From Escherichia coli O157:H7 (lineage in GTDB: Bacteria > Pseudomonadota > Gammaproteobacteria > Enterobacterales > Enterobacteriaceae): a stretch of DNA of 64,000 bases. Made by a program: the position numbers. The first letter of the stretch is position 1. Each line of letters opens with the position of its first letter. The DNA lies in assembly GCF_013167455.1 (NCBI RefSeq), contig NZ_CP038328.1, one strand, 5' to 3'. Below, piece after piece: positions 9,001-12,000 of the stretch.

Positions 9001-12000
9001 CTGGCGATAGTGGTGCTCGGCGGTATGGGCTCGCAATTTGCGGTAATTCTGGCGGCAATTTTGCTGGTGGTGTCGCGCGAGTTGATGCGTGATTTCAACG
9101 AATACAGCATGTTAATGCTCGGTGGTTTGATGGTGCTGATGATGATCTGGCGTCCGCAGGGCTTGCTGCCCATGACGCGCCCGCAACTGAAGCTGAAAAA
9201 CGGCGCAGCGAAAGGAGAGCAGGCATGAGTCAGCCATTATTATCTGTTAACGGCCTGATGATGCGCTTCGGCGGCCTGCTGGCTGTGAATAACGTCAATC
9301 TTGAATTGTACCCGCAGGAGATCGTCTCGTTAATCGGTCCTAACGGTGCCGGAAAAACCACGGTCTTTAACTGCCTGACCGGATTCTACAAACCCACCGG
9401 CGGCACTATTTTACTGCGCGATCAGCATCTGGAGGGTTTGCCGGGGCAGCAAATCGCCCGCATGGGCGTGGTGCGTACCTTCCAGCATGTGCGTCTGTTC
9501 CGCGAAATGACGGTAATTGAAAACCTGCTGGTGGCGCAGCATCAGCAACTGAAAACCGGGCTGTTCTCTGGCCTGTTGAAAACGCCTTCTTTCCGTCGCG
9601 CCCAAAGTGAAGCGCTCGACCGCGCCGCCACCTGGCTTGAGCGCATTGGTTTGCTGGAACACGCCAACCGTCAGGCGAGTAACCTGGCCTACGGTGACCA
9701 GCGCCGTCTGGAGATTGCCCGCTGCATGGTGACGCAGCCGGAGATTTTAATGATCGACGAACCTGCGGCAGGTCTTAACCCGAAAGAAACGAAAGAGCTG
9801 GATGAGCTGATTGCCGAACTGCGCAATCATCACAACACCACTATCTTGTTGATTGAACACGATATGAAGCTGGTGATGGGAATTTCGGACCGAATTTACG
9901 TGGTCAATCAGGGGACGCCGCTGGCAAACGGTACGCCGGAGCAAATCCGTAATAACCCGGACGTGATCCGTGCCTATTTAGGTGAGGCATAAGATGGAAA
10001 AAGTCATGTTGTCCTTTGACAAAGTCAGCGCCCACTACGGCAAAATCCAGGCGCTGCATGAGGTGAGCCTGCATATCAATCAGGGCGAGATTGTCACGCT
10101 GATTGGCGCGAACGGGGCGGGGAAAACCACCTTGCTCGGCACGTTATGCGGCGATCCGCGCGCCACCAGCGGGCGAATTGTGTTTGATGATAAAGACATT
10201 ACCGACTGGCAGACGGCGAAAATCATGCGCGAAGCGGTAGCGATTGTCCCGGAAGGGCGTCGCGTCTTCTCGCGGATGACGGTGGAAGAGAACCTGGCGA
10301 TGGGCGGCTTTTTTGCCGAACGTGATCAGTTTCAGGAGCGCATAAAGTGGGTGTATGAGCTGTTTCCACGTCTTCATGAGCGTCGTGTTCAGCGGGCAGG
10401 CACCATGTCCGGCGGTGAACAGCAGATGCTGGCGATTGGTCGCGCGCTGATGAGCAATCCGCGTTTGTTGTTGCTTGATGAGCCATCGCTCGGTCTTGCG
10501 CCGATTATCATCCAGCAAATTTTCGACACCATCGAGCAGCTGCGCGAGCAGGGGATGACTATCTTCCTCGTCGAGCAGAACGCCAACCAGGCGCTGAAGC
10601 TCGCTGATCGCGGCTACGTGCTGGAAAACGGCCATGTTGTGCTCTCCGATACTGGTGATGCGCTGCTGGCGAACGAAGCAGTGAGAAGTGCGTATTTAGG
10701 CGGGTAAATTATCGATAACCCGGCAGCTAAGTTCTGCCGGGTTATTCGTCCGTATACAGACTTGTTTCAACTGACCGGGAGGATTAAAACCAGACCACTT
10801 ATTTGCCACGGAAAGGTTCCCTCCCATGCATTATGCCGTTGTTGTCATGCTTGAACTGCTTTGCTGTATTCACGCTTACCGTACCGGACAAGAGCGGTAC
10901 TGGATTTTTATCATTTTCTGTTTTCCGGTGATTGGCTGCGTGGCGTATTTCGTCATAGTGATGCTGCCTGAAACGGGCGCTGACCGTCACGGGCATACTT
11001 TGCTGATGCGCCTGCAGGACAAACTCAACCCTGAGCGCCACCTGCGCAAATTAACCGAAGAACTGGCGATTGCCGAGACGAATCAAAACCATTATGCGTT
11101 GGCTAATGAACTGGCGCGTCTGGGGCGTTATCACGAAGCTGTTCCCCATTATCAGCAGGCGTTAAGCGGGATATTCGCCCATGAAGCGGCAATGATGCTA
11201 AGCCTGGCGCAGGCACAGTTTGCTATTCAGGAGTTCGCCGCCTGTCAGCAGACGCTGGAAGATGTGATGCGTTATAACCCTGATTTTCAGTCGGCAGACG
11301 GGCATTTGTTATTTGCCAGAACGTTAGCCGCACAAGAAAAATACGCTGATGCGGAAAGCGAGTTTGAAGTATTGATTTCTTATTACCCCGGCCCGCAGGC
11401 GCGTATTTACTATGCGGAAATGTTGGCGAAAATGAGTCGGTTACGTGAAGCCAACGAGCAGTATGTTGCCGTGGTTGATACGGCTAAACGCTCAAGACCT
11501 CATTATAGAAAACACCACCGGGAATGGATTAAGACCGCCAATGAGCGGCTGAAGCAGAGTGTGGTGCAATGAAAATCTTCTTTGCCGTTAGACCAGTGTC
11601 GCGGCAATCTTTTGTTAAAATTGAAAAATGTAGCTCTCATCGGGCAGCAAAATTGGACGCAGAATTTGCTGCCATTTTTGCTCTTCATGGTAAGGAGTTC
11701 TGGCGATTAGCTGGCCGTTAATCGCCTCTTTTCAGTGCATTCTCGGGATATCCGTGCCCCATCTCCCATTTTCCCTCACCCGTACCGTCACCGCCTTGTC
11801 ATCTTTCTGACACCTTACTATCTTACAAATGTAACAAAAAAGTTATTTTTCTGTAATTCGAGCATGTCATGTTACCCCGCGAGCATAAAACGCGTGAATT
11901 CGCGCATTCGGTACAACAAGAGAGATAAACGATGAAACCGTTACATTATACAGCTTCAGCACTGGCGCTCGGACTGGCGTTAATGGGGAATGCACAGGCA

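Follow-up and report, generated by a model that had tools for sequence, protein, structure and literature searches.

What does Escherichia coli O157:H7 encode between its liv and ugp operons, at a site where the laboratory strain K-12 has no gene, and what might the product do? The question is raised by a 64,000-nucleotide stretch of DNA (contig NZ_CP038328.1 of RefSeq assembly GCF_013167455.1; the whole stretch is termed here the window), in which an open reading frame (ORF) of 248 codons occupies positions 10826..11572 of the + strand, running from an ATG start to a TGA stop and specifying a PLDc_N-type membrane hairpin followed by a tetratricopeptide repeat (TPR) domain. This ORF (termed here the TPR gene) is co-oriented on the + strand with both of its flanking genes, livF, whose stop codon falls at 10707 (118 bp before), and ugpB, whose start falls at 11932 (359 bp after). 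An earlier note, made from the sequence alone, had called a 248-residue ORF between livF and ugpB on their strand, and the call holds in full: the peptide strings quoted there are found in the translation, the ORF is well beyond chance, and it matches exactly a RefSeq coding sequence, WP_000558842.1 ('tetratricopeptide repeat protein', E. coli O157:H7), within a 1.4-kb stretch that E. coli O157:H7 chromosomes share at 100% identity.

In strain Sakai the ugpB gene is ECs4299 (PMC2241611), and the TPR gene is therefore probably ECs4300. A literature search returned no mention of WP_000558842, of ECs4300, of PLDc_N in combination with TPR, or of the family under UniProt-style names, and ECs4300 is also missing from the supplementary material published with the Sakai transcriptome. 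(The allele of E. coli O145 RM9873-C1 (locus L009, 1501-2250), which carries a one-codon insertion, AAAMML for AAMML, and so specifies 249 residues, is labeled by RefSeq 'hypothetical protein' rather than 'TPR protein'; hence the automatic annotation of this family is thin.)

A gene under purifying selection in a widespread family

Four E. coli alleles that differ from each other by at most 6% at the DNA level were compared, in all of which the reading frame is full length. The pairwise ratio of nonsynonymous to synonymous divergence (dN/dS) is 0.08-0.13, at a dS of 0.08-0.24, and livF shows a dS in a similar range in the same strains (0.06-0.17). The low ratio together with the livF-like dS therefore indicates both that the TPR gene evolves under purifying selection and that it has diverged together with its flank. 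In other words, it is a real gene under purifying selection where it is kept.

Full-length homologues range in identity from 94% to about 30%, with values of 94% for E. fergusonii, ~75% for Citrobacter, ~43% for Pseudomonas and 37% for Exilibacterium. When 1.84 billion cluster representatives were searched with a profile, at least 680 clusters (at 50% identity) matched with E<1e-30, and, among the matches listed, nearly all are 240-255 residues long and align end to end. Matches in the AlphaFold database (AFDB) and in genomes come from the Gamma-, Alpha- and Betaproteobacteria, plus Desulfonema, and are named no more specifically than 'TPR protein', 'membrane protein', 'hypothetical' or, in several UniProt homologues, 'Cardiolipin synthase N-terminal domain-containing protein'. 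The earlier note had allowed that the ORF might be spurious and without homologues, or might have a K-12 orthologue of known function: a spurious ORF is rejected by the dN/dS of 0.08-0.13 and by the full-length homologues, and K-12 lacks the gene altogether.

An N-terminal hairpin resembling that of cardiolipin synthase

A structure was predicted by AlphaFold2 from a 27-sequence alignment, yielding an all-helical model with a mean predicted local distance difference test (pLDDT) score of 88. Residues 1-50 (10826..10975, + strand) form in this model a two-helix membrane hairpin, with helices at residues 2-20 and 25-50. Helix 1 is marginally hydrophobic (mean Kyte-Doolittle value 1.75) and includes E10 and H16; helix 2 is strongly hydrophobic (Kyte-Doolittle value 2.67, summed Hessa ΔG -2.4), has a kink or break at P34, and carries the motif W26-x7-P34-x2-G37-x3-Y41 (that is, W-x7-P-x2-G-x3-Y). 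The loop between the helices, R19-T-G-Q-E-R24, is basic, with a family mean of 2.16 lysines or arginines (K/R). Among 153 representatives the hairpin is the best-conserved part of the family: H16 is conserved in 98%, G21 in 84%, W26 in 99%, P34 in 92%, G37 in 99%, Y41 in 99% and P48 in 97%, and R or K at position 19 is near-universal.

The Pfam PLDc_N model (PF13396) matches the O157 protein at residues 26-44 (independent E-value 6.9e-4, score 20.0); across the family, 6 of 27 members reach it at E<=1e-3 and 14 at the looser limit of E<=0.1, the strongest at 3.1e-5. Conversely, a family profile of the first 52 residues finds the second transmembrane domain (TMD2) of K-12 ClsA, a cardiolipin synthase, at residues 39-59 (E 6.4e-4); ClsA is the sole match from outside the family among 779 six-frame ORFs, several polytopic membrane proteins included, and it has residues that match the motif at W40, P48, G51 and Y55. 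The earlier note's proposal of a PLDc_N-like N-terminus is thus supported, by the ClsA match with its shared motif and, more weakly, by the Pfam match. Because it is helix 2 that matches ClsA, and neither helix 1 nor the loop does, helix 2 appears from its sequence to be a PLDc_N core, and the family a distinct PLDc_N variant with an invariant histidine of its own.

The hairpin is followed by a basic juxtamembrane linker, residues 51-82 (10976..11071, + strand), with amphipathic helices at 54-67 and 71-82 and a near-invariant D/N68-P69 (P69 is conserved in 95% of the representatives). The pLDDT of this linker, 53-70, is the lowest in the model.

A four-repeat TPR domain

The remainder of the protein, residues 83-248 (11072..11569, + strand), is modeled with a pLDDT of 90-98 as four helix pairs (86-98/102-112, 121-133/137-150, 157-169/173-186 and 191-202/206-222) plus C-terminal capping helices (225-247). 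Pfam assigns TPR_19 (2.5e-6), TPR_2 (1.3e-4) and TPR_1 (1.4e-4) to the O157 protein, and TPR_19 is found at E<=1e-3 in 25 of 27 family members. The structural matches returned by Foldseek against the PDB are to consensus TPR proteins, the OGT TPR domain, MamA and YrrB, with E-values of 4.5e-5 to 4e-4, and a profile search of PDB sequences returned generic TPR proteins only. These Pfam assignments, modeled helix pairs and structural matches support the earlier note, which had taken this part for TPR-like. Family motifs within the domain are NPDFxSADGHLLYAR (151-165) and YYPGPEA (186-192). Among the 153 representatives its most conserved positions are mostly structural (A, L, G or P); moderately conserved positions of a non-structural kind are S156, H160, R165, E191, R195 and W234.

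Orientation in the membrane

On which side of the membrane the TPR domain lies bears directly on what it could bind. In ClsA, the C-terminal domain stays cytoplasmic in cells replete with phosphatidylethanolamine (PE), where it is kept by the basic loop, by a TMD2 that contains PxxG and by a basic spacer; TMD2 may be re-entrant (Sawasato, Dowhan, Bogdanov; PMC11698083). Translocation is blocked by positive charges that follow a transmembrane domain (TMD) within about 30 residues, as in LepB (PMC11698083). The present family has, on average, an uncharged N-terminal tail of about 4 residues, a loop with 2.2 K/R (net charge +1.7) and, in the 30 residues after helix 2 (residues 49-78), 6.9 K/R versus 3.75 D/E (net +3.1). 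By analogy with the topology of ClsA, and because of this charge bias (the positive-inside rule), the TPR domain probably faces the cytoplasm.

The opposite orientation, in which helix 2 acts as a signal-anchor and the TPR domain lies in the periplasm, like that of YfgM or CpoB/YbgF, there to bind an envelope partner, is unlikely. It is true that the R19...R24 loop ahead of the hydrophobic helix 2 resembles the n-region of a signal-anchor, that an uncharged tail of four residues might well cross the membrane, and that the top TPR similarity in NCBIfam is to the periplasmic YbgF. The YbgF score of 31.6 bits is, however, far under the 90.1-bit cut-off, and the roughly seven K/R (net +3) that occur family-wide within 30 residues after helix 2 amount to a positive spacer of the sort that blocks LepB translocation and keeps the ClsA domain cytoplasmic (PMC11698083).

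A further alternative is a lipid-responsive dual topology, in which the hairpin would flip upon a fall in PE or an osmotic down-shock, thereby presenting the TPR domain to either face of the membrane. Inversion of the ClsA domain to the periplasm upon PE depletion or osmotic down-shock needs the native two-TMD hairpin, for which the TMDs of LepB are no substitute (PMC11698083); a motif-bearing helix 2, a basic loop and a basic spacer are common to ClsA and the TPR protein; and a hairpin under such extreme conservation would seem to do more than anchor. Nevertheless, this alternative is quite improbable: the argument is purely one of analogy, in which only TMD2 is matched, neither helix 1 nor the loop being ClsA-homologous; the conserved PxxG is dispensable for ClsA flipping (PMC11698083); and a folded TPR domain of about 200 residues would need to be flipped.

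A proposed membrane-tethered TPR adaptor

With confidence and doubt in about equal measure, the product is read here as a small inner-membrane protein that serves as a membrane-tethered TPR adaptor, the adaptor role being one that we infer. The hairpin of residues 1-50, which is of the cardiolipin-synthase type, would fix the location of the protein at the inner membrane, where the K/R-rich linker would keep the remainder on the cytoplasmic side. There the four-repeat TPR domain would offer a protein- or peptide-binding groove beside the membrane, with S156, H160 and R165 among its predicted lining residues, by which it would recruit or hold a cytoplasmic or membrane-peripheral partner. The hairpin might in addition sense the lipids around it. 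Because its conservation is the strongest in the family (97-99% at H16, W26, G37, Y41 and P48), the hairpin is expected to be more than a passive anchor, either positioning the protein or responding to membrane lipid.

Several observations weigh against this reading. The PF13396 match is weak and partial, covering model positions 22-40 of 42 only, and helix 1 and the loop are without detectable resemblance to ClsA. The positive-inside rule is ambiguous for a true two-span hairpin, since the inter-helix loop is basic too (net +1.7), and the O157 protein has just two K/R in the first 15 residues past helix 2. At two of the moderately conserved TPR positions the Escherichia proteins depart from the family consensus, having Q in place of E191 and Y in place of R195. 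Of the complete E. coli genomes, 88% lack the gene, and its copy in the E. albertii type strain is truncated, so that its function is dispensable and may be decaying in Escherichia. Finally, the literature search gave no experiment on any member of the family.

Comparison with known systems

The resemblance to ClsA extends to the general layout of the N-terminal region, that is, two hydrophobic helices, a short basic loop, a motif-bearing helix 2 and a K/R-rich spacer; the TPR protein differs in having TPRs in place of the PLD/HKD domain and in the invariant H16 and G21 of its own family. Membership in the cardiolipin synthase family (TIGR04265) is rejected by a score of 11.6 bits versus a cut-off of 290, the match being limited to residues 22-46.

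The closest functional analogue is LapB (YciM), an inner-membrane-anchored cytoplasmic TPR adaptor in FtsH-dependent turnover of LpxC. Both proteins have an N-terminal anchor followed by TPRs that act, or in the TPR protein would act given the orientation proposed above, as a cytoplasmic, membrane-proximal scaffold, and one AFDB homologue is automatically named LapB. LapB, however, has a single transmembrane helix, about nine TPRs and a rubredoxin-type zinc finger, whereas the TPR protein has a two-helix hairpin, four TPRs and no cysteine-rich C-terminus, its one cysteine after residue 50 being C140. Membership in the LapB family accordingly fails on the zinc finger, on repeat number and on the family model (NCBIfam gives no LapB match at E<=1).

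MamA, YrrB and CpoB/YbgF, short stand-alone bacterial TPR proteins, likewise have a TPR domain of similar size, with four or five repeats; proteins of this kind give the best fold matches in the PDB (the target-normalised TM-score of MamA is ~0.7-0.77), at 13-18% sequence identity. None of them has the PLDc_N hairpin, however, and they occur in soluble form or in the periplasm. The CpoB/YbgF model (TIGR02795), although the best NCBIfam match, is rejected on the score given above. Lastly, small proteins that consist of PLDc_N only or of PLDc_N plus SHOCT also have the PLDc_N module without PLD, fused to a non-enzymatic domain (PMC3581485). These uncharacterised proteins are at most 173 residues long, and the partner domain in the O157 protein is instead TPR.

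Distribution in Escherichia and its relatives, and probable losses in E. coli

When presence and absence are mapped across complete E. coli genomes, the TPR gene is found in 659 of 5426 (~12%), where it is always chromosomal and almost always in single copy; 477 of these genomes carry it at >=99% identity, 73 at 95-99% and 109 at 90-95%. The earlier note could recall no gene at this site in K-12, and rightly so: at this locus K-12 MG1655 has only a 398-bp livF-ugpB intergenic region.

The TPR gene also lies between livF and ugpB in Escherichia sp. E1V33, in MOD1-EC7003, in E. whittamii and in E. albertii, as well as in Citrobacter sp. NCU1, C. freundii and Pseudocitrobacter. Given this shared site, the gene is probably ancestral at livF-ugpB and has probably been lost repeatedly. 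In the E. albertii type strain NBRC 107761 (locus L017, 6001-6609) the orthologous ORF ends after about 202 codons, which probably makes this copy a pseudogene or else a truncated allele.

Such a pattern could also be taken to mean that in E. coli the gene is a non-functional relic heading for loss. The missing copies, the truncation in E. albertii and the Escherichia-specific changes at the conserved TPR positions 191 and 195 are in keeping with this, but a dN/dS of 0.08-0.13 at a dS of up to 0.24, along with four full-length alleles, is not what a relic would be expected to show, and the proposal is considered very unlikely.

A variable cassette between livF and ugpB

A three-way alignment of O157:H7, K-12 and the soil isolate SC455 defines the borders of a variable cassette (10708..11749, without strand) that extends from the livF stop codon to the conserved region upstream of ugpB and that is 1042 bp long in O157:H7. 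The three strains are identical through GGCGGGTAA, and identity resumes at window position ~11750 with ATCCGTGCCCCATCTCCC. Within these borders the sequence of K-12 is unrelated and only about 216 bp long, with a hairpin of its own and a putative REP-like (repetitive extragenic palindromic) element (locus L002, 1609-1825); SC455 has a phd/doc toxin-antitoxin pair (locus L003, 1609-2320); and in C. freundii the TPR gene is accompanied by two small ORFs and by a phd-doc pair that is intact (locus L006, 7873-10400). (The two small C. freundii ORFs, at 8799-9131 and 9272-9679 of the same locus, specify 93-110 and 135 residues; they have no Pfam match on record, and the first has a hydrophobic N-terminus resembling a signal peptide.) The junction thus occurs in at least four states, the O157 type consisting of the TPR gene plus a phd remnant, and each variant begins directly after the livF stop codon, with its own hairpin. 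The livF-ugpB junction is thus a hot spot of variation.

The phd remnant corresponds to the C-terminal half of a Phd/YefM antitoxin (11611..11721, + strand; 36 codons) and is identical to the C-terminus of SC455 Phd at 16 of 36 positions (44%; E 1e-9). It forms the end, ...AKLDAEFAAIFALHGKEFWRLAGR, of a 50-codon ORF located directly after the TPR gene (window 11569-11726); in O157 no doc toxin gene lies behind it. On the simplest reading, the original order was livF-TPR-(phd/doc)-ugpB, which then decayed lineage by lineage, most E. coli losing the TPR gene.

The region upstream of ugpB (11750-11931) is nearly invariant among O157, K-12 and SC455 whatever lies ahead of it, and because it is conserved in all variants the cassette does not disturb ugp regulation. 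It contains repeated CTGTCAT-like motifs, presumably Pho boxes. The earlier note had hinted at a connection with ugp and the Pho response, and this part of it did not hold up: the cassette stops upstream of the ugpB control region, linkage to ugp is confined to enterics, and distant homologues have unrelated neighbours.

Transcription signals

An RNA hairpin directly after livF (10713..10748, + strand; ΔG -21.6 kcal/mol, z-score -5.1, with none of 200 shuffled sequences as stable) is kept in the E. coli alleles, with changes in the loop that look compensatory. Its U-tail is weak (UUAUUCGU), and a simple terminator scan did not pick it; it is the probable terminator of the liv operon. Next comes a leader or promoter region of about 80 bp (10749..10825, + strand) that is conserved alongside the TPR gene in Escherichia species: the block GTCCGTATACAGACTTGTTTCAACTGACCGGGAGGATTAAAACC...ATG is kept in E. 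coli, Escherichia sp. E1V33, E. whittamii and E. albertii, and partly in C. freundii. (Between livF and this conserved block, E. whittamii and E. albertii have differing sequence.) A weak candidate promoter, TTGTTT-17-TAAAAC, may be discerned within this region, and a consensus promoter scan upstream of the TPR-gene ATG passed no site. Downstream, a terminator-like hairpin with a UCUUUU tail (11702..11726, + strand; ΔG -19.5 kcal/mol, z-score -3.35) lies 130 nt past the TPR stop codon and overlaps the end of the phd-remnant ORF.

The conserved upstream block and the flanking hairpins suggest that the TPR gene is a separate transcription unit; as the scan for a consensus promoter found none, the gene may also be read through from the liv operon.

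Gene neighbourhood

The ORFs of 80 loci from about 45 taxa were clustered by BLASTP at two stringencies, and no conserved gene neighbour was found in these loci outside the enterics. The only recurrent neighbour clusters are a generic ATP-binding cassette (ABC) ATPase and a short-chain dehydrogenase/reductase (SDR), both non-adjacent and of differing subtypes. (An apparent second neighbour cluster was rejected as an antisense shadow ORF of the TPR gene in high-GC genomes.) The homologues in P. alcaligenes and Exilibacterium lie in unrelated contexts. In these two a fatty-acid desaturase gene is found 4-7 kb from the TPR gene (locus L004, 553-1632, and locus L005, 3155-4141, respectively), which is probably a coincidence inasmuch as the 80-locus clustering did not recover the association. 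PADLOC gives no family at E<=1 for the TPR protein, and no NCBIfam model scores above its curated cut-off. Because there is no conserved neighbour outside the enterics and neither PADLOC nor NCBIfam makes a call, the TPR gene stands alone genetically; it is probably expressed singly and does not seem to belong to a multi-gene system.

These neighbours bear on two remaining alternatives. The protein might regulate, or be a partner of, cardiolipin synthase or phospholipid metabolism, its hairpin pairing with that of ClsA or sensing anionic lipid and its TPR domain modulating the enzyme. Helix 2 is indeed ClsA-like, and the conserved cluster of H16, R/K19, R22 and W26 at the hairpin tip would be the kind of site that binds anionic head groups; in 80 loci, however, there is no linkage to cls or to other lipid genes, and such a role is given very little credence. 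That the gene travels as cargo in a toxin-antitoxin or defence islet at a recombination hot spot and is linked in function to the neighbouring phd/doc, as the variability of the junction, the phd/doc pairs of some strains, the O157 phd remnant and the C. freundii arrangement might suggest, is largely refuted by the neighbour analysis and scarcely credible, given that PADLOC finds no match, that toxin-antitoxin neighbours occur in enterics only and not beside the homologues of Pseudomonas, Xanthomonadales, Bradyrhizobium and others, and that every O157-type locus has kept the TPR gene while lacking doc.

Implications

The practical weight of this gene for the biology of O157:H7 is probably small. 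It does reveal a K-12 blind spot: a probably ancestral gene of Escherichia and Citrobacter, kept by O157:H7 and by about 1 in 8 E. coli, was never studied because the laboratory strain had lost it. Beyond E. coli, it draws attention to a Proteobacteria-wide family, comprising at least 680 clusters at 50% identity, that has no characterised member. Among membrane-anchored TPR adaptors, the combination of a PLDc_N hairpin with TPRs is a new architecture.

Recent work has shown that the hairpin of ClsA holds the information needed for the lipid-dependent inversion of that enzyme's topology. The natural fusion of such a hairpin to a TPR domain also provides a compact system in which to ask whether the ClsA hairpin works alone. 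By analogy with ClsA, the PLDc_N hairpin might be an autonomous, lipid-responsive topological module, the face to which the TPR domain is exposed being set by PE and cardiolipin content or by osmotic shock; this is a long shot. If it were true, however, the family would provide a second natural case of ClsA-style post-insertional flipping, and the TPR protein would function as a sensor of membrane state or as an adaptor that depends on it.

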